Positions 2,782 to 43,553 of a stretch of 44,540 nt of DNA are shown here, one piece after another (within the stretch, counting starts at the first letter, position 1; every line of letters starts with the position of its first letter). The translations under genes and the position numbers were made by a program. Below the pieces are notes generated by a model. The model did no database searches, was not told where the DNA came from, and saw only the letters and a list, made by a program, of their open reading frames with translations. Origin of the DNA: Escherichia phage vB_EcoS-phiEc4; sequence record MZ576218; one strand, given 5' to 3'.

Positions 2782-3858
2782 ATGCTATTAACTTTAGCGC
2801 CACAGGGTTTATCTATGAGCTTACTTACATCCCTAATCAGCCATCAGATATGGCTGCAACGCACCGCATCCGGTGAGGTGAAAGACCTCACGCCGTTCAT
2901 TCAGGAGATAAGGGATGAAATCAAACGGCAGGTGCTGTTATTCGGTGACGACGGTCGCAGCACTGCGCGACTGAATAAACTGTTACGCGACCTGGAAGAA
3001 GCACTAACCGGTATTACGGGTGACTGGCAAACAAAGCTAACAGACGACCTTAAGGAACTGGCGGCGTACGAGGCTGAGTGGAACGTAAAGACACTGACCG
3101 CCAACGTAGACGCGGAATTTGTTACGCCTACCGCTGAGCAGGTATGGGCCGCTGCCGAGTTTCAACCATTATCATTGAGCGACAAGCCCGTTGATTTCAC
3201 CAAGCTGATGTCTGGATGGGGCGAAACGGAAGTAGCACGTCTTGTAACTGGAGTTAAGATGGGCTTTGTGCAAGGTCAAACCACACGGCAGATTGTTAAG
3301 AATGTTGTTGGCGCTGGTGGACTAGCCGACATCTCAGAACGTAACGCGGCTACGGTAATCCGCACCGCGCTGTCCCACGTATCCAACGAGGCCCGTAACG
3401 AGACGTACCGCCAGAACGACAACATCATCGAGAAGTACGAGTGGGTGTCAACGCTTGACAGCCGCACCAGTACGATTTGCAGGGTCAGAGACGGGATGAC
3501 GTGGGAAATTGGTAAGGGGCCGATGCCCCCAGCCCATCCGAACTGCCGGTCGTGCACGGCTCCGGTAATCAGTTCCGAGTTCGACTTCCTCGATAAAGGC
3601 GCAAAACGCGCGGCTAAAGGCGCGGAAGGTGGCACTCAGGTAAGCGCAGACACCACTTACTACGAGTTCCTTAAACAACAACCGGCGTGGTTTCAGGACC
3701 AGGCGCTCGGCCCGGTGCGAGGTAAGATTTTCCGTAACAGCGGTATATCGCCGGAAGAGTTTCGCGTAATATCTGTAGATGGTTTCGGGAATCCGCTCAC
3801 GCTTAAGCAGATGGCGGAACTCGATAAACGTGTTGCTGATTATCTGAAAGGGGAATAA
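2782..3858 (+). CDS. head morphogenesis protein (Mu F / SPP1 gp7-like minor head protein)
   Basis: 358 aa following portal; C-terminal Cys/His-rich region typical of the F-like family. Confidence 0.6.
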   Translation: MLLTLAPQGLSMSLLTSLISHQIWLQRTASGEVKDLTPFIQEIRDEIKRQVLLFGDDGRSTARLNKLLRDLEEALTGITGDWQTKLTDDLKELAAYEAEWNVKTLTANVDAEFVTPTAEQVWAAAEFQPLSLSDKPVDFTKLMSGWGETEVARLVTGVKMGFVQGQTTRQIVKNVVGAGGLADISERNAATVIRTALSHVSNEARNETYRQNDNIIEKYEWVSTLDSRTSTICRVRDGMTWEIGKGPMPPAHPNCRSCTAPVISSEFDFLDKGAKRAAKGAEGGTQVSADTTYYEFLKQQPAWFQDQALGPVRGKIFRNSGISPEEFRVISVDGFGNPLTLKQMAELDKRVADYLKGE

Positions 3859-4431: not shown

Positions 4432-4776
4432 TCATTTGCATTTCTCGTCGTATGTTTGTTGTAACTGCGACAGACGATTACCGGCTGTCATCTCGTCCAT
4501 AGAAGGCCCGGCGCCCGTGTCCATAAAGAACAGCGGAACAATCAGGAATGCGCCTGTAACACCGAGTACAACGTTAGTACCTATTTGCTTATTAACACGG
4601 TGCGTAGCGTTGGCTTGAGCTTGTTTTGTCGCGGCGATTCTCGATAGTAACTGATTACATGTTGCCGTTGTATCCCCCGCCTGATAAACCTGTAAAGCTG
4701 GGTCTGGCAACGACCTTACGCAACCACTCAAACAAACGGCTACAACACCTGCTACTGCTAATTTAATATATTTCAT
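4432..4776 (-). CDS. lipoprotein with C-terminal hydrophobic segment (superinfection-exclusion candidate)
   Basis: 114 aa; signal peptide with lipobox LSGC (MKYIKLAVAGVVAVCLSGC); own promoter upstream; antisense to structural genes. Confidence 0.6.
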   Translation of the reverse strand: MKYIKLAVAGVVAVCLSGCVRSLPDPALQVYQAGDTTATCNQLLSRIAATKQAQANATHRVNKQIGTNVVLGVTGAFLIVPLFFMDTGAGPSMDEMTAGNRLSQLQQTYDEKCK

Positions 4777-4874
4777 AGTTCACCATTACCTGTATCAATG
4801 TCACCGATACCACTACAAGCCCAAATAAACATCGCCACATCAACTGCAATTACTACTGAAATAACGACTAACAT
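4773..4874 (-). CDS. 33-aa hydrophobic micro-protein (MLVVISVVIAVDVAMFIWACSGIGDIDTGNGEL)
   Basis: not in ORF track (<60 aa); strong RBS GAGGAGG 5 nt upstream of ATG; stop overlaps start of lipoprotein gene (ATGA coupling). Confidence 0.35.
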   Translation of the reverse strand: MLVVISVVIAVDVAMFIWACSGIGDIDTGNGEL

Positions 4875-4901
4875 GACGGCCTCCTCGGTTCGATAGAATG
4901 A

Positions 4902-4930
4902 ATAGTACCCTATTATATTGGGGTGTGCAA
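4902..4930 (-). promoter_or_regulatory. sigma70-like promoter P_A copy 1 (TTGCAC-17-TACTAT) with AATAG-N4-CTATT palindrome
   Basis: reverse complement reads TTGCACACCCCAATATAATAGGGTACTAT; 29-bp block recurs at 14137..14165, 37896..37924, 39119..39147. Confidence 0.6.
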
Positions 4931-4982
4931 ACTATTTATTTACGTATTCCAGTTATTCCACCGAATTGTAAATGTTGGAATA

Positions 4983-4998
4983 AACTATTCGAATAGTT
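4983..4998. repeat. 16-bp perfect palindrome AACTATTCGAATAGTT overlapping -35 of P_C1
   Basis: self-complementary as read; half-sites CTATT/AATAG are those of the promoter palindrome family but in opposite arrangement. Confidence 0.5.
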
Positions 4999-5025
4999 GA
5001 CTTTTCACTAAAAATATGATAAGCT
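4997..5025 (+). promoter_or_regulatory. promoter P_C copy 1 (TTGACT-17-TGaTAAGCT, extended -10)
   Basis: same -35, 17-bp spacing and TGn-TAAGCT as 37587..37615. Confidence 0.55.
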
Positions 5026-5031
5026 CCACCT

Positions 5032-5234
5032 GAGCTTGTGAAGTATGAACAAGCGACCGCGGCGCGGGCAGGTAACGGAGCGGGACGTAAGTCCTGAGTG
5101 TAGTTACGCTGACGCGTTCGGAAGGGCCATACTCTATTGCTTGTGTAAAAAGTAACAGGTTTACTTAGATTACGCCGTTTCTATGTTTAAATGATAAGGA
5201 CTAGCGCCCTGCTTTAAGGCAGGGCTTTACTTAT
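5032..5234 (+). ncRNA. promoter-proximal structured RNA element, copy 1 (candidate antitermination leader or sRNA)
   Basis: ~105-nt core homologous to 37621..37725 with compensatory changes in two helices; ends at terminator-like hairpin 5206..5234. Confidence 0.5.
5206..5234 (+). terminator. hairpin GCCCTGC-TTTAAG-GCAGGGC followed by TTTACTTAT
   Basis: 7-bp GC-rich stem and U-rich tail, 15 nt upstream of Rz start. Confidence 0.5.
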
Positions 5235-5249
5235 CGAGAAAGGGGAAAC

Positions 5250-5636
5250 ATGAATCTTAAAGCAACCGTCGTAGCAGGAGCATGTTTCATCATCCTGGCT
5301 TACACACACGGCATTTATCAGTACCGCAGCGGCTGGCACGAAGGCCGCGCTAATCTCGTTTCGCAGCAACAGCAGAAAGCACAGGCCGAGTTAGCGAAGA
5401 AAACACAACGGCAGCAGCAGGATGAATCAAAGGCCGCCGCCGCTGACAACGAAGGCAAGACGAAATCAGAGGTGATCACCCGTGAAGTCGTTAAGTACAT
5501 TAAAACTCCTGGTCGCAGCGTGTGCACTTTCGACCCTGAGCGCGTGCAGCTCAAGTCCCGCGCCGTCGCAAACGCCAATTCCATCCCCGGATACGACGAT
5601 GATGCAGCCGCCGTGCAAGCTGGCACCGCCGAGTAG
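5250..5636 (+). CDS. i-spanin (Rz-like)
   Basis: 128 aa; N-terminal TM segment, Gln/Lys-rich charged periplasmic region; contains +1-frame lipoprotein ORF. Confidence 0.6.
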   Translation: MNLKATVVAGACFIILAYTHGIYQYRSGWHEGRANLVSQQQQKAQAELAKKTQRQQQDESKAAAADNEGKTKSEVITREVVKYIKTPGRSVCTFDPERVQLKSRAVANANSIPGYDDDAAAVQAGTAE

Positions 5637-5745
5637 CGACGCTGACGAGGATTTAGCTATCGACGTTCAGAACGCTGAATGCGTACGGCAGCTGCGGCTG
5701 AAAGTGTTCATGTTGCAGGATTACGTGAGGAATATTCTGGAATAG
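5482..5745 (+). CDS. o-spanin (Rz1-like lipoprotein), overlapped architecture
   Basis: 87 aa in +1 frame relative to Rz; signal peptide with lipobox LSAC; Pro-rich mature region. Confidence 0.6.
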   Translation: MKSLSTLKLLVAACALSTLSACSSSPAPSQTPIPSPDTTMMQPPCKLAPPSSDADEDLAIDVQNAECVRQLRLKVFMLQDYVRNILE

Positions 5746-5827
5746 TTGCCTTGCATGTTGGAATAATTTATTCTTGACATGTAAATCCGGGTGGCCCGGG
5801 TTCCAACGTCCAGGGGACATACTGACT

Positions 5828-8020: not shown

Positions 8021-8200
8021 ATGGCAGATAATTATGTAATCCGCGAAAAGTACACCCACGTTGATATTGTAGACGGTCAGGTGATGCCTGTTCGCGGTGT
8101 GGTAGAAGCGGATGAACTGGTTGCGACTCAACCGGACAACGAAGAAGCGCACAACAACGGCGGTGGTGCTAAGCGTCGTCGCCGTAAATCAGAGGAATAA
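8021..8200 (+). CDS. 59-aa protein with basic C-terminus (GAKRRRRKSEE)
   Basis: not in ORF track; RBS AGGAAAGG 3 nt upstream of ATG; fills gap between decoration and adaptor genes. Confidence 0.4.
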   Translation: MADNYVIREKYTHVDIVDGQVMPVRGVVEADELVATQPDNEEAHNNGGGAKRRRRKSEE

Positions 8201-8203
8201 TTT

Positions 8204-8716
8204 ATGCCGCTAATCGTGGAAGACGGGTCGATAGTACCTAACGCCGACAGTTACATTAGTCTGGCTGACGCCCGCGCGTTAGCGGCTAATTACGGTCTTG
8301 AGTTACCCTCAGACGATACTGCCGCAGAGGTGGCACTGCGCAACGGCGCTACTTATGTCGGGCTTGCAGAACCGCAGATGTGCGGCCGCCGTGTGTCCGC
8401 CGAGCAGTCCCTGGCGTACCCACGTACGGGAACAACACTAAACGGCTTCACCGTAGCTGATAATGTTATCCCACCGCAGTTAATCCGGGCGCAGGTAATC
8501 GCCGCTGTTACGTATGGAGCGGGCACTGATGTTCGGGCTAACTCCGATGGACGTTCCGTGCAGACCGAGCGTGTAGAGGGTGCGGTAACAGTTACCTACT
8601 TCAACAACGGCAACAGCGGGGCCACAACCGCGATTACCGCCGCTGACGACGCCTTACGCCCGTTACTGTGTGGTGGTCTTAACAACGGCTTCTCATTTAA
8701 TGTGTACCGGGGTTAA
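8204..8716 (+). CDS. head-tail adaptor / connector protein
   Basis: 170 aa, first gene of neck block after capsid; assignment by position. Confidence 0.45.
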   Translation: MPLIVEDGSIVPNADSYISLADARALAANYGLELPSDDTAAEVALRNGATYVGLAEPQMCGRRVSAEQSLAYPRTGTTLNGFTVADNVIPPQLIRAQVIAAVTYGAGTDVRANSDGRSVQTERVEGAVTVTYFNNGNSGATTAITAADDALRPLLCGGLNNGFSFNVYRG

Positions 8717-14094: not shown

Positions 14095-14136
14095 AACATA
14101 ACTCCTGATTTGAGATAACATCGTTGGTGTAAGTGA

Positions 14137-14165: not shown

Positions 14166-14272
14166 GTAGTGTGCTAGAATAATTTTGCGCCTAGTGTCGC
14201 ACACGAAAAGCGGGTGGTTCCCGTCTGGCGCATTTCCTTTAACCAGTAACCTCTTAACCAAAGGATTAAAGA

Positions 14273-34262: not shown

Positions 34263-34478
34263 ATGCAACCATCCGAACTAGGCATCCGTGTAGAGCAACG
34301 CCGTAAAGAACTCGGCATCTCCCAGCGCCGTCTGGCTGTCCTGGCCGGTGTCTCCCAGGGCGCAATTAACCAGCTGGCTCTCGGTGTAACTCAGGACGTC
34401 CGCCCGGCAACGTTGTTTAAACTGGCGGAAGTGCTGGAAGTAGACGCTAAGTGGCTGGCGTTCGGTGAAGGGGCTTGA
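34263..34478 (+). CDS. XRE-family HTH transcriptional regulator (Cro/CI-like)
   Basis: 71 aa; helix-turn-helix GISQRRLAVLAGVSQGAINQL; RBS AAGGAG; divergent from replication-module promoter. Confidence 0.7.
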   Translation: MQPSELGIRVEQRRKELGISQRRLAVLAGVSQGAINQLALGVTQDVRPATLFKLAEVLEVDAKWLAFGEGA

Positions 34479-34689: not shown

Positions 34690-36965
34690 TCCAAATCCTC
34701 CTCTGTCACTGTCAACATTTCATTCGGTTCGTATATTGTCTTTGGAATCTTGTTATCAGTTATTCTGGTGTTCAGCCTGTAACGACCTGGGATTATCTGA
34801 TTGTTTTCGTCAGTACCCGGAACAAGATACCCAGCCTCAACCATTTTCTTAATCTTCCCGCGTTCTATGGCTTCTTTGGAGTTAAACGCCTTTGCGTTGG
34901 GGTCAGACTGCGCGAGCTTATTCGCTGCGGATACCGTGATGCCCTCGTTGCCGTTGTAGGTCCCCTCCGCCAGTTCAAACGCCGCGAGTATCGTGGCCTC
35001 GGAACTGTTGACGGCGTTCTCTATGGTTTTACGTACATTTTGTTTACCTTCGTTAGTTAACCCTTCTTCCCTCTCTTTCTCCTCGTCGGTCTTGAATGGC
35101 TCGAAGCCCCACGGCATCAATACAAGCGCCTTGTGCGGCTCAGGCAGGTCGAGGTTTACTATTGTGCCGTATTCCTCTGTGCTACCGAGGAACTCAACCG
35201 CGCGGTACTCTTTCGGCGGCGGTGCTTCACGGAACTGTACAGACTCCAGTACCATGCCAACCGTCTTCTGTTGAGGACCGTGCTTAAATTTAGAGTGGTA
35301 TACGTTTATCTGACGGTCGGTAGCGCGTTCGATTGTCAGTTCCACGTCGACACCCGCATACAATGCTCCACTGCCGCGGGCTTTCTTTCCGCCCTTCGGA
35401 GTATGGTGAACGACACCGACAGCGGCTTTAGTTGCATCGCGCACTTCTTTCAGGATGGCGATAACTTTACCCATACCGATTGCCGTTGATGAACTGTTCT
35501 CGTCGAACTTATCAATCGTCAGGGCCAGCGTCTGGTTAAGGGTGTCGAAGGCAACCATGCCAATAGGTTCATCCCCTGCGGTTTCGCGCATCCTGCGGAT
35601 TAGAGCTGGAATTTTTTTATCACCATGCGTAGCGAGTATTTCGCCCATATCGATGACATGTACATAATCTTTACCTTCCTCGCCATATTTAGCCGCGAGT
35701 GCATCAATACGTGTTCGTGTAGCTGCACCACCCTCGCCGTCAATATAGAAATGGTGGCAACGTTGGGTGTCAGCCCCCGCAAACCGGTACCCGGCGGCGC
35801 TCAGGTACATCATCCCCAGCGTATAGAATGATTTGTACGTGCCGGATTCCCCGACAATATCCCAGATACAATCCGACGGCATGTACCCCTCAACGACGAA
35901 ATCAGCCTTTACCGGTTCTGGTAACTCGTCCTCTTCTTCAAGGTCTTCCAGGTCGTCGAGGCTGCATGAGACAGATTCACGCGCCCCCCAACCGATGGCC
36001 TCTGCGACTTCACTGAACGGCAGCCCGGTCGCATCGCACGCGTACTTCCACACCTCTTTCGGTGACAGGCCTTCTGTCGCCGTAATGTCTGTGTCGTGAA
36101 TCATGGTTACGTTTGGCGCTTCATACCCCTCGCGCGGGAAGCACAGCAGGAAGTCGTCCGGGCGCGGTGTCGGGTCGCTGTAGTTTTCGGCATGTTCCGG
36201 TGTGGCTGGCATCTTAAGGCCGCGCGGCGTCATGACGCCGCCGTACTCAAACGCCAGTGCTTCAAACGCGTCTGTAAACGCGGTGCGCAGTTCTTCCGGT
36301 ATCTGGTAATCCGATGCGCTGCTAACGTCAACGGCTGGGATGCCTTCCAGTAACTCGTTCGGGTCGATCAGGTCGTTGCGGCGCGACCAGATAACGGTAG
36401 CGCCGACCGGCGGCAGGTACATCGGCTGCGACAGAGTGAACCCGCTGCGGTCAGCGCCCATGCCTTCGAAGAAGTGCTCCAGCAAGCCATGACGAACACG
36501 GATGATGTCGCCGCCTTCAACCGGGCGGCTCAGCGGCATGACGACGCGAAAGCGCGGTGACTCATCGGTATGTGATGCCGTGGTGTAGAGACACATCGCC
36601 CGGCGGCTGCGATTAACCAGGCGCACCGCTTCCTGGTACTCTTCCGGTGTTGCACTGTCGAAGTCCAGATACGCCAGCGACGATTTGCTCACAGACGCGT
36701 CACAGCGATAGAAGAAGCCTTTACGCGCTTGCTTAAAGTCACCGGTTTCCGGGTCTTTTACAGTGCTGTGCGCAGAGTCGCACGCGGCAGTAATATAGCC
36801 TGGCGCTGTCTTCGGGTTGATCCCGTCACGAACAGCATCGAGCGGCTGGATTAACTCTTTCAGGTCATCCAGTGTTGCCGTGTGTGTGGTTCTGACGTTT
36901 ATATCCTTTTTCTCTGCCCGCGCGTTGCGACGTGACCACGAGTAGGATAAAATTACATCGGACAT
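34686..36965 (-). CDS. DNA primase-helicase (N-terminal primase-like region, C-terminal P-loop helicase)
   Basis: 759 aa; Walker A GESGTYKS in C-terminal half; large N-terminal domain. Confidence 0.65.
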   Translation of the reverse strand: MSDVILSYSWSRRNARAEKKDINVRTTHTATLDDLKELIQPLDAVRDGINPKTAPGYITAACDSAHSTVKDPETGDFKQARKGFFYRCDASVSKSSLAYLDFDSATPEEYQEAVRLVNRSRRAMCLYTTASHTDESPRFRVVMPLSRPVEGGDIIRVRHGLLEHFFEGMGADRSGFTLSQPMYLPPVGATVIWSRRNDLIDPNELLEGIPAVDVSSASDYQIPEELRTAFTDAFEALAFEYGGVMTPRGLKMPATPEHAENYSDPTPRPDDFLLCFPREGYEAPNVTMIHDTDITATEGLSPKEVWKYACDATGLPFSEVAEAIGWGARESVSCSLDDLEDLEEEDELPEPVKADFVVEGYMPSDCIWDIVGESGTYKSFYTLGMMYLSAAGYRFAGADTQRCHHFYIDGEGGAATRTRIDALAAKYGEEGKDYVHVIDMGEILATHGDKKIPALIRRMRETAGDEPIGMVAFDTLNQTLALTIDKFDENSSSTAIGMGKVIAILKEVRDATKAAVGVVHHTPKGGKKARGSGALYAGVDVELTIERATDRQINVYHSKFKHGPQQKTVGMVLESVQFREAPPPKEYRAVEFLGSTEEYGTIVNLDLPEPHKALVLMPWGFEPFKTDEEKEREEGLTNEGKQNVRKTIENAVNSSEATILAAFELAEGTYNGNEGITVSAANKLAQSDPNAKAFNSKEAIERGKIKKMVEAGYLVPGTDENNQIIPGRYRLNTRITDNKIPKTIYEPNEMLTVTEEDLE

Positions 36966-37023: not shown

Positions 37024-37314
37024 TTATCTTTTAGCCAGACATTCCATCAAATGTGCGTACTTACGATAATAATCTGCGACAATCTCATCACCGAAATACT
37101 GATAAACGTAGGATAGGTGGTCGGAGACATCGATGGAAGCCGACATTGTGCTGAGTCTTCTTAGACTAATCGACTGCAATTCTTCTGTAACGCAAAACGG
37201 CAAATATGAGTCCAGTTTACAGGAAACGTTAAAACACAACGCATACTCACCTTGCACTAAATAGACCATATAAGCACTGTCATTTTCTTTATCGTGGAAA
37301 ATTACACCTTTCAT
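37024..37314 (-). CDS. hypothetical protein
   Basis: 96 aa; ATGA overlap with upstream HTH gene. Confidence 0.45.
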   Translation of the reverse strand: MKGVIFHDKENDSAYMVYLVQGEYALCFNVSCKLDSYLPFCVTEELQSISLRRLSTMSASIDVSDHLSYVYQYFGDEIVADYYRKYAHLMECLAKR

Positions 37315-37481
37315 TTCACGTTCTCCTTAATCCACGCTTCAACTTTATTACGGTCAAATGTTCCTGGTAAACGGCGCCCCATTACTTTAACGCTGCAATC
37401 AGGAAACTTTCCACTCTTAATCCAGTTATTGATTGTCTGGCGGGTGACGCCGATTAATTCTGCAACTTCATTGATAGTCAT
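37311..37481 (-). CDS. AlpA/excisionase-type HTH DNA-binding protein
   Basis: track ORF 37311..37571; likely start ATG 37481 with RBS AGGAGA; motif TINEVAELIGVTRQTINNWIK. Confidence 0.55.
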   Translation of the reverse strand: MTINEVAELIGVTRQTINNWIKSGKFPDCSVKVMGRRLPGTFDRNKVEAWIKENVK

Positions 37482-37510
37482 CTCGCGCTCTCCTGTGTAA
37501 TATGTATCGA

Positions 37511-37586: not shown

Positions 37587-37615
37587 TTGACTTTTACTTG
37601 AAAATATGCTAAGCT
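37587..37615 (+). promoter_or_regulatory. promoter P_C copy 2 (TTGACT-17-TGcTAAGCT, extended -10)
   Basis: same architecture as 4997..5025. Confidence 0.55.
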
Positions 37616-37620
37616 TCACT

Positions 37621-37858
37621 GAGCTTGTGAGATATCGCAAGCGACCGCGGAGCGGCAGGGAACGCAACGCGTGCCATTAGGCACTTGAGTGTAGTTCCGC
37701 TGACGCTTTCGGAAGGGTCAAAGTCTATTGTTAATCCCGCCTAAATATCCAAGTCACGGATAATTAAAAGTTTCTATAGTTGCCGTGAGCAAGGTAGAGA
37801 GTACTTCACTCCGCTGGGGTGGGCTAACGCCCACCCACTGCGTTGCGTACTCTTTTAA
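37621..37858 (+). ncRNA. promoter-proximal structured RNA element, copy 2
   Basis: core 37621..37725 homologous to 5032..5135 with compensatory substitutions; 3' region has GC-rich hairpin GGGTGGGC-TAAC-GCCCACCC nested in AGAGTAC/GTACTCT helix followed by TTTT. Confidence 0.5.
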
Positions 37859-37895
37859 GAAACGAAAGAATCACAGCGGCAACGTAACTATTCTC

Positions 37896-42096: not shown

Positions 42097-42117
42097 TCTA
42101 TTTCCGATAATGACTAG

Positions 42118-43149: not shown

Positions 43150-43320
43150 ATGTTCAGTGACATTAACGCGGCAATCGAAGAAGCAATCTGGCGTCGCTAC
43201 AACGGCGAGCAACAACGGCATTTCTGCCTGGTGCAACGCGGTAACATGATTGCCGTAGTGCAGGACCGCGATAACAAATATCCGAATGCGATGTGGACAA
43301 CGAGGAATTTTTTAGGATGA
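43150..43320 (+). CDS. 56-aa hypothetical protein
   Basis: not in track; ATG 6 nt after previous stop. Confidence 0.4.
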   Translation: MFSDINAAIEEAIWRRYNGEQQRHFCLVQRGNMIAVVQDRDNKYPNAMWTTRNFLG

Positions 43321-43553
43321 TTACCAGCATTCCGAACCTGATTAAAGAATTCGGCACGATGGCCGAGACATGCCGGCAAACCGGCATCAACGAAATGACG
43401 ATTGCGAAGTACAGCAAAGACGTTGATTGCGAGCGCCACGTAATTTATAACAATCGTCTGATGACACATGTTAAGACAAGCCCGGTGTTATTCACGCGCC
43501 GAGGTATCACTAAAACTGAGCAACGCATTGCTAAAGAGGAGAGTGGAGAATGA
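43317..43553 (+). CDS. small HTH-like DNA-binding protein
   Basis: track ORF 43293..43553; ATG 43317 (ATGA overlap) or 43293; segment AETCRQTGINEMTIAKYSK looks helix-turn-helix. Confidence 0.45.
   Translation: MITSIPNLIKEFGTMAETCRQTGINEMTIAKYSKDVDCERHVIYNNRLMTHVKTSPVLFTRRGITKTEQRIAKEESGE

Follow-up and report, generated by a model that had tools for sequence, protein, structure and literature searches.

The DNA considered here is a 44,540-nucleotide stretch of Escherichia phage vB_EcoS-phiEc4 (sequence record MZ576218), hereafter the window, and the element under study is a 16-bp perfect palindrome, AACTATTCGAATAGTT, located at positions 4983–4998 (centre 4990/4991) at the upstream edge of a predicted promoter, P_C1. 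The window is a Kagunavirus (Guernseyvirinae siphophage) genome: the region around the palindrome finds its best matches in Kagunavirus and Jerseyvirus phages, the Guernseyvirinae siphoviruses of E. coli and Salmonella, and its closest relative at the locus is vB_Eco_K-02, with 97.7% identity over 1.4 kb. The gene order is terminase, portal, head morphogenesis, a Hoc-like gene and two small leftward genes (4432–4880, minus strand), followed by a 370-bp non-coding region and then by the spanins (5250–5745), scaffold, major capsid and tail genes. Within the non-coding region, P_C1 is followed by a non-coding structured RNA, C1 (5032–5232, plus strand), which ends in an intrinsic terminator (5206–5225) just before the ribosome-binding site and the start of the spanin gene (5250).

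P_C1 (4997–5025, plus strand) is a plausible sigma-70 promoter, composed of a -35 element TTGACT (4997–5002) that matches the consensus at 5/6 positions, a 17-nt spacer, the TG of an extended -10 (5017–5018) and a -10 element TAAGCT (5020–5025), with a predicted start (+1) near 5032. It is missed by a simple promoter scan because TAAGCT matches TATAAT at only 3/6 positions; an independent PhagePromoter annotation places a host promoter at the equivalent spot in phage fBC-Eco01. Counted from the predicted +1 at 5032, the palindrome extends from -49 to -34, with its centre at -41.5, and overlaps the -35 element by 2 bp. Both the exact self-complementarity of the 16-mer and its overlap with TTGACT, reported in the initial annotation, are confirmed.

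Palindromy by itself is not beyond chance, as a perfect palindrome of at least 16 bp is present in 153 of 300 dinucleotide shuffles of the window. The window contains one other long perfect palindrome, GCGGCGTCATGACGCCGC (18 bp, 36224–36241), inside the helicase-primase coding region. No second copy of AACTATTCGAATAGTT was found across the window, even when up to three mismatches were allowed. To follow the element through related phages, 48 loci were collected via the spanin protein and the 400 bases 5′ of the spanin start were aligned. Conservation is expressed below by counting, for each column, the variant sequences found in 39 distinct Kagunavirus-type relatives, and SETP3 with its relatives (loci L039–L048) is referred to as the Jerseyvirus-type clade. 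By this measure, the 16-mer has on average 0.38 variant sequences per column, the -35 element 0.17 and the -10 element 0, compared with 2.9 in the promoter spacer, 8.2 at 4960–4964 and 11.8 at 4936–4944. Since the 16-mer is about as invariant as the promoter hexamers while nearby positions are free to vary, the element must be constrained rather than being just young sequence.

The constraint does not follow the symmetry. All eight pairs of the palindrome are intact in 30 of the distinct Kagunavirus-type upstream regions, and each of the five single-base variants seen in these relatives breaks one pair, none of them being compensated. Neither compensatory changes nor the more diverged relatives show any upkeep of symmetry: in P_C1 of the Jerseyvirus-type clade the same 16 positions read CTTTATTCAAAAAGTA, with 3 of the 8 pairs left (2–3 across the clade), and the same promoter and RNA are present. 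The exact 16-mer also occurs in 37 IMG/VR contigs. Of the six that were read, two show the P_C1 context and four place the 16-mer in unrelated coding sequence, apparently by chance, as their number is about that predicted by a rough estimate. The remaining contigs were taken to belong to the same group of phages, as they share names with loci in the collection described above. An IMG/VR scan with the 15-mer TATTCCAGTTATTCC returned mostly unrelated contigs, the pattern being too short, and was not used. We also rejected a hairpin, cruciform or terminator role for the palindrome: the DNA hairpin reaches only -2.4 kcal/mol (in 10 of 200 shuffles the fold is equally good or better), a T-run is missing, and the predicted start lies downstream of the palindrome.

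The right arm of the 16-mer leads to a motif that recurs throughout the genome. The family of promoter palindromes invoked in the initial annotation is real: AATAG-N4-CTATT has seven perfect and four one-mismatch copies, against 1.14 expected, and none of 100 shuffles reaches that number. The family is identical to the PHIRE motif tgAATAGTa-ccTATTat-T published for the Kagunavirus fBC-Eco01 (PMC9825357), and a similar PHIRE promoter count has been reported for Golestan (PMC7203180). The published reports describe seven copies of the motif, attribute it to phage RNA polymerase and do not include the P_C1 site among the copies (PMC9825357, PMC7203180). This attribution looks wrong, because the annotations of the relatives we examined contain no phage RNA polymerase gene. 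The 16-mer carries the pentamers of the family in inverted order (CTATT-CG-AATAG), as had been noticed before, and is not itself a member, its arms being inverted and its spacer being 2 instead of 4. Its right arm is identical to the GAATAGT arm of the published motif, so that the 16-mer and the family have this 7-mer in common, and together with the -35 element it forms AATAG-TTGA-CTTTT (4992–5005), a one-mismatch member of the family in normal orientation. The flanking G and TT of this site match the family arm GAATAGTT. With a position weight matrix (PWM) derived from the seven perfect sites, the site scores 16.1 bits and ranks tenth in the genome (0.07 expected in random sequence), and a clear gap separates it from the background, which lies at 11.4 bits and lower.

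Every family site lies on a core element (spacer, -10 or -35) of a predicted promoter, the genes served being early, replication and nin-like ones, and such overlap is the usual position of a repressor. The sites (4901, 14136, 27504, 31264, 34175, 34219, 37912, 39135 and 42113, also 2776) display three geometries. The family site lies in the spacer of TTGACA-17-TATAGT promoters (27504, 31264 and 34175, all on the minus strand), over the -10 of TTGCAC-17-TACTAT promoters (4901 and 14136 on the minus strand, 37912 and 39135 on the plus strand) or over the -35 (42113 and P_C1). The site at 42113, ACTAGTTGACTATT, is followed by 17 nt and TATATT, and thus has a TTGACT -35 element embedded in the motif, the same design as in P_C1. 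Close to P_C1 itself, the canonical family palindrome AATAGTACCCTATT (4901–4914, minus strand) is found at the divergent leftward promoter, which corresponds to 'phage promoter2' in fBC-Eco01; it is missing in relatives that do not have the leftward genes. Beside the family promoter at 14136, the 5′ leader of the tail-assembly-chaperone operon contains the only Rfam hit of the window, int-alpA (14184–14248, plus strand; 36.6 bits versus a gathering threshold of 35.8).

The left arm of the 16-mer belongs to something else. It is the right arm of the dyad GAATA-AAC-TATTC ('D2', 4978–4990). Perfect GAATA-N3-TATTC dyads occur exactly twice in the window (4978 and 5761) and twice in SETP3 (5723 and 6480), at orthologous places, the second copy in the window being GAATA-ATT-TATTC (5761–5773). 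In every C1 promoter that carries the dyad, in both clades, its offset from the -35 element is -19. The dyad at 4978 is part of the upstream control region of P_C1, O1 (4945–4990), which includes GGAATA at 4977–4982. The distal part of O1 consists of the direct words TATTCC-AGT-TATTCC (4945–4959, plus strand), identical at 15/15 positions in both clades, and between the O1 words there is a TGTAAAT block (4967–4973, plus strand), which is the same in both clades and has differing flanking bases. Altogether, the two clades have in common TATTCC-AGT-TATTCC, TGTAAAT, GGAATA (4977–4982), TATTC (4986–4990) and A.A.AGT.GACTT, which runs into the -35 element.

A second cluster of the same words, O2 (5729–5773, plus strand), is situated 780 bp downstream, where it covers the stop codon of the o-spanin gene and the spacer that precedes the scaffold gene. 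It is composed of GGAATA (5729), GGAATA (5739) and GGAATA-ATT-TATTC (5760–5773). Only at O1 and O2 do three or more GGAATA/TATTCC hexamers fall within 60 bp, both in the window and in SETP3, and each of the two clusters carries two extra words 21–32 bp upstream of its dyad. Of 46 distinct sequences covering both clades, only 2 show any change in the three GGAATA words and the dyad of O2; this invariance includes synonymous positions of the last six spanin codons, and the stretches between and after the words diverge. No convincing promoter was detected at O2, where a TTGACA at 5774 has no -10 element and is not conserved in the Jerseyvirus-type clade. Directly upstream of the scaffold gene, there is a conserved hairpin, CCGGG-TGG-CCCGG (5787–5799, extended 5784–5802), with no T-run after it, the outer stem of which covaries between the clades (AATCCGGG...CCCGGATT versus ACACCGGG...CCCGGTGT). 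Further downstream, GGAATAATTTATGC (8194–8207) agrees with the O2 dyad region at 13/14 positions, probably by coincidence; there it provides the head-tail adaptor gene with its ribosome-binding site and start codon.

The Jerseyvirus-type clade allows the two arms to be followed separately. SETP3 keeps the AATAG-N4-CTATT family, with five perfect copies, and its P_C1 has a one-mismatch family site, AGTAGACTTCTATT, over the -35 element (rank 8 by SETP3's own PWM, 0.21 expected), with the register shifted by 3 bp; a site of this type is lacking in 2 of the 10 distinct Jerseyvirus-type sequences. The right arm of the 16-mer is replaced there by an A-tract, CAAAAAGTA, beside the -35 element. Thus, the palindrome is absent from this clade while the dyad at -19 and, in most members, a family-like site are present, which argues that symmetry is not what is conserved. 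A tblastn search with the capsid protein for a deeper outgroup showed identities dropping from about 88% to 45% with nothing in between. Salmonella phage PMBT28, which at 45% is the next outgroup in capsid similarity, lacks the whole promoter-RNA-spanin cassette and therefore provides no third clade for comparison. In PMBT28, the head-morphogenesis and scaffold genes are directly adjacent (3011–3089), which makes the cassette, O1 and O2 included, a Guernseyvirinae-specific insertion.

A natural control is provided by a paralogous promoter, P_C2 (37587–37615, plus strand; TTGACT-17-TGcTAAGCT), which drives a second copy of the RNA, C2. The homology between the two loci starts exactly at the -35 element (TTGACTTTTCACTAAAAATATGATAAGCT versus TTGACTTTTACTTGAAAATATGCTAAGCT), and nothing is common upstream of that point. 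P_C2 was checked for the palindrome, for GGAATA/TATTCC words and for a family site, and has none of them; in this comparison the palindrome is specific to P_C1. Since P_C2 has the same core and RNA without either element, the elements at P_C1 can be regarded as add-ons to a presumably sufficient core.

With the sequence anatomy, conservation pattern, statistics and P_C2 contrast observed as described, we tentatively favor a composite operator, in which the 16-mer would be the seam of two abutting protein-binding elements, with probable repression by an XRE-family protein at the -35 element. A junction is the most economical reading, since the words GAATA and AATAG are both comprised in GAATAG/CTATTC. 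P_C1 would then possess an upstream control region of roughly 55 bp, with the 16-mer as its promoter-proximal end. The right arm of the 16-mer and the -35 element would constitute a slightly weakened family operator, AATAG-TTGA-CTtTT, in normal orientation; a Cro-like XRE protein bound at 4992–5005 would cover the -35 element and block its recognition by sigma region 4, and this occlusion would yield less of the transcript that begins with the structured RNA C1. The left arm, CTATTC, would serve a different element, as the right arm of the GAATA-N3-TATTC dyad, and the dyad, the upstream TATTCC/GGAATA words and O2 may bind a second factor that modulates P_C1. The suggestion that P_C1 is repressed comes from the position of the site only, and it is the identity of the binding proteins, the sign of regulation and the transcription start that we infer. 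The proposal of the initial annotation that there is a regulatory site at P_C1 is retained in part: a regulatory protein-binding role is plausible because the palindrome is conserved, specific to P_C1 and touches the -35 element, but the alternative binding mode that had been attached to it finds no support, as discussed below.

The window encodes two candidates for the DNA-binding proteins. The first is a 71-aa XRE/Cro-type helix-turn-helix (HTH) protein (34263–34478, plus strand; Pfam HTH_3, E = 2.3e-12), which also matches PHROG families of transcriptional regulators/repressors. Two strong family sites (34175 and 34219) are located immediately upstream of its gene, and based on this and on the analogy with Cro/CI systems the XRE protein is most likely the binder of the AATAG-N4-CTATT sites. 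The second is a 56-aa HTH_17 protein, similar to excisionase, AlpA and PrtN (37311–37490, minus strand; Pfam HTH_17, E = 2.9e-10); its coordinates include 9 bases upstream of the ATG (37481–37479). Close homologs of the HTH_17 protein are labelled PrtN by their sources, and its counterpart in SETP3 is gp46. The search for HTH_17 homologs retrieved close relatives only, with no independent context that would link HTH_17 to the GGAATA words. As judged by eye, identity to the respective SETP3 counterparts is about 50% for the XRE protein and about 80% for HTH_17, which is compatible with the invariant words but does not establish a link to them. Apart from HTH_3 and HTH_17, the Pfam scan of 30 small proteins gave only a sub-threshold NinH-like match (43293–43553), and it revealed no ribbon-helix-helix protein, Q-like protein or sigma factor.

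Several observations weigh against the composite operator. The assignments of proteins to motifs come only from gene neighborhood and analogy. The CTTTT arm of the 4992–5005 site is present in P_C2 as well, by paralogy, so that only the AATAG arm is specific to P_C1. If the 16-mer is just a seam, then the extra symmetry between AAC (4983–4985) and GTT (4996–4998), which is also conserved, is a coincidence of about 1 in 64, and it may instead reflect selection for a genuine 16-bp operator in the Kagunavirus-type clade. In the divergent relative L028, the dyad is GAATA-N4-TATTC and the family site has two mismatches, so the elements tolerate change. If P_C1 is a late promoter for the spanin, scaffold and capsid genes, Cro-like repression is not an obvious design. 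Finally, our literature search on transcription and promoters of Guernseyvirinae, Jerseyvirus and MB78 yielded genome reports with PHIRE or PhagePromoter predictions only, and no results from binding assays, transcript mapping or expression studies of these phages. In view of the extra symmetry, the CTTTT shared with P_C2, L028 and the scant literature on transcription, a stand-alone operator remains a serious rival.

Such an operator, which we consider unlikely on balance, would be bound at ACTATTC/GAATAGT, with its centre at -41.5, by a dimeric protein (HTH_17, NinH-like or a host factor) that would act as a repressor by occluding the -35 element or else activate P_C1 through class II-type contacts, and the site would have been lost or replaced in the Jerseyvirus-type clade. 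In favor of this view, the palindrome has 8/8 pairs with all 16 positions conserved like promoter hexamers in the 39 distinct relatives, it is centred at -41.5 from the predicted +1, and it is present at P_C1 and missing from P_C2. In addition, small HTH_17 proteins related to PrtN/AlpA are positive regulators of lysis or late genes (PMC7969949). On the other hand, the Jerseyvirus-type clade, exemplified by a sequence with 3/8 pairs, has conserved the rest of the control region, the variants are never compensatory, the genome has no second copy at up to three mismatches, and a perfect 16-bp palindrome arises by chance in about half of the shuffled windows. The resemblance to class II activator sites, such as those of CRP and FNR, lies in the dyad centre at -41.5 overlapping the -35 element, a geometry that fits only with the predicted +1 at 5032. 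Class II-type activation goes with a poor -35 element, whereas here TTGACT matches at 5/6 positions and is backed by an extended -10, and the paralogous core promoter P_C2 does without such a site. An activator therefore seems unnecessary. The 16-mer does not resemble TGTGA-N6-TCACA or TTGAT-N4-ATCAA, the CRP and FNR consensus sites, and to our knowledge none of the consensus sequences of CRP, FNR, ArgR, RcsAB, CpxR, ArcA, TyrR, DnaA, Fur and the LacI family fits convincingly.

It is quite unlikely that P_C1 has no dedicated regulator at this position and that the palindromy is incidental, the region being AT-rich, UP-like or curved DNA that contacts the alpha subunits of RNA polymerase or a host nucleoid protein. 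The segment from -59 to -38 is about 73% A+T, the Jerseyvirus-type clade has the A-tract CAAAAAGTA by the -35 element, and A-rich tracts are found at the equivalent position of P_C2. However, the conserved words contain G and C (GGAATA, TATTCC, TTCG) while the bases between them vary freely, and these words are found again at O2, which has no convincing promoter; a generic UP element would predict neither. The region TTGGAATAAACTATTCGAATAG also fails to match AAAWWTWTTTT...AAA, the type of consensus known for UP elements, and its conserved positions include G/C in the words.

The model put forward in the initial annotation, namely that the regulator of the family also binds head-to-head to CTATT-CG-AATAG and thereby represses P_C1, appears very unlikely. 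The pentamers and the 7-mer GAATAGT are indeed common to the 16-mer and the family, and the site overlaps the -35 element. Nevertheless, a family site of the normal tail-to-tail geometry is already present at 4992–5005, so that no unusual binding mode is needed, and the left arm belongs to a different dyad. SETP3 retains the family and not the head-to-head palindrome. Moreover, on general structural grounds, inverted half-sites and a centre spacing of 7 bp versus 9 bp would be unattractive for, and incompatible with, a rigid symmetric HTH dimer. Least probable of all is the view that O1, O2 and the left half of the palindrome are remnants or sites of the insertion of the cassette into the head operon, i.e. 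direct repeats with no role in transcription: a 19-bp near-repeat (ATGTTGGAATAA.yTATTC) does flank the cassette in direct orientation, and PMBT28 has adjacent head-morphogenesis and scaffold genes and no cassette, but no recombinase is encoded, the right arm is left unexplained, and the near-invariance of the words across diverged clades, including in synonymous codons, argues for ongoing function.

The composite operator can be compared with several known systems. The family sites are reminiscent of the operators of Cro/CI-type (XRE-family) proteins, such as lambda OR/OL and those of 434 and P22, in that short repeated dyads lie over -35, spacer and -10 elements, the sites cluster by a small HTH_3 gene, and their strength is graded, the P_C1 site being weaker than the canonical one. 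Unlike in Cro/CI systems, the phage is virulent and neither an integrase nor a CI-like repressor was identified, its sites are distributed over at least nine promoters genome-wide rather than in one switch region, and the half-sites of the 16-mer are opposite in orientation. The P_C1 site also differs from the PHIRE copies listed previously in being a one-mismatch copy over a host-type -35 element. The locus further resembles Q/AlpA antiterminator loci, with a strong constitutive-looking promoter, a short structured transcript, a terminator, lysis/late genes and an AlpA/excisionase-like HTH protein. The loading elements of these systems, ABE of P. aeruginosa AlpA and QBE of lambda, are non-palindromic and lie in the stretch that separates the -35 from the -10 (PMC7969949). 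The palindrome at -49 to -34, by contrast, is upstream of and overlapping the -35 element and does not qualify as such a loading element. O1 and O2, for their part, are similar to the arrays of pyocin P-box/PrtN, P2 Cox boxes and omega heptads, as they consist of 5–6-bp words in direct and inverted orientation at roughly helical spacing, and occur in the context of a promoter for lysis and structural genes. The sequence of the words is presumably unrelated to the P-box/PrtN, Cox and omega consensus sites.

The transcript expected from P_C1 begins with an RNA that is itself under strong constraint. When E. coli phages are compared with many Salmonella phages, C1 identity is at least 93%, against only 63–74% for their spanins, and C1 shows compensatory base pairs; its terminator was found by a scan. 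No Rfam match was obtained for C1 or its region, either at gathering thresholds across the whole window or in a permissive search of 4880–5260. C2 (37587–37730, plus strand) is 79% identical to C1 over about 145 nt, with compensatory changes in the hairpin. In the broader comparison of 37587–37860 with 4997–5232, C2 is followed by a hairpin and early genes, and many relatives have two copies per genome; the C2 locus of SETP3 has a different non-coding region. The succession of strong promoter, structured RNA, terminator and operon bears a likeness to HK022 putL/putR and to lambda PR′/6S RNA, here present twice per genome. A scan with a pattern of the RNA core gave matches in two further loci (L173 and L215, with a span of 53 nt), which were dismissed as GC-rich chance matches. 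The structured RNA also contains a 36-codon open reading frame (5045–5155, plus strand), annotated in some relatives (Bas75_0007, fBCEco01_09, hypothetical protein), which is probably not a gene; we rejected it as the reason for the conservation of C1 because it is conserved neither in C2 nor in the Jerseyvirus-type clade. The duplicated, highly conserved structured RNA and the two arrays of GGAATA words are more unusual features than the 16-mer.

On a broader and rather speculative view, to which we assign a low probability, O1/O2, the RNAs C1/C2 and the terminator ahead of the spanin and head genes might form a late-gene control module of Guernseyvirinae. In one form of such a module, a cis-acting RNA similar to the put RNAs of HK022 would make the polymerase terminator-resistant, and the HTH_17 and Cro-like proteins would compete at the 16-mer: the HTH_17 protein on the word array would gate the promoter, and the Cro-like protein at the adjoining family site would counteract it.

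As a discovery, an operator that overlaps a promoter is modest, since such operators are textbook biology. Nevertheless, the analysis would correct the published attribution of the motif to a phage RNA polymerase and names the bases that separate the two elements. If the composite operator is correct, then a single operator family, with a Cro-like protein as its probable reader, serves some ten promoters, and a second word motif is found only at the two ends of the RNA-spanin cassette, with both motifs at P_C1 and neither at P_C2. This would be the first concrete, testable map of transcription control for Kagunavirus and Jerseyvirus, whose phages are widely isolated with a view to therapy and biocontrol.

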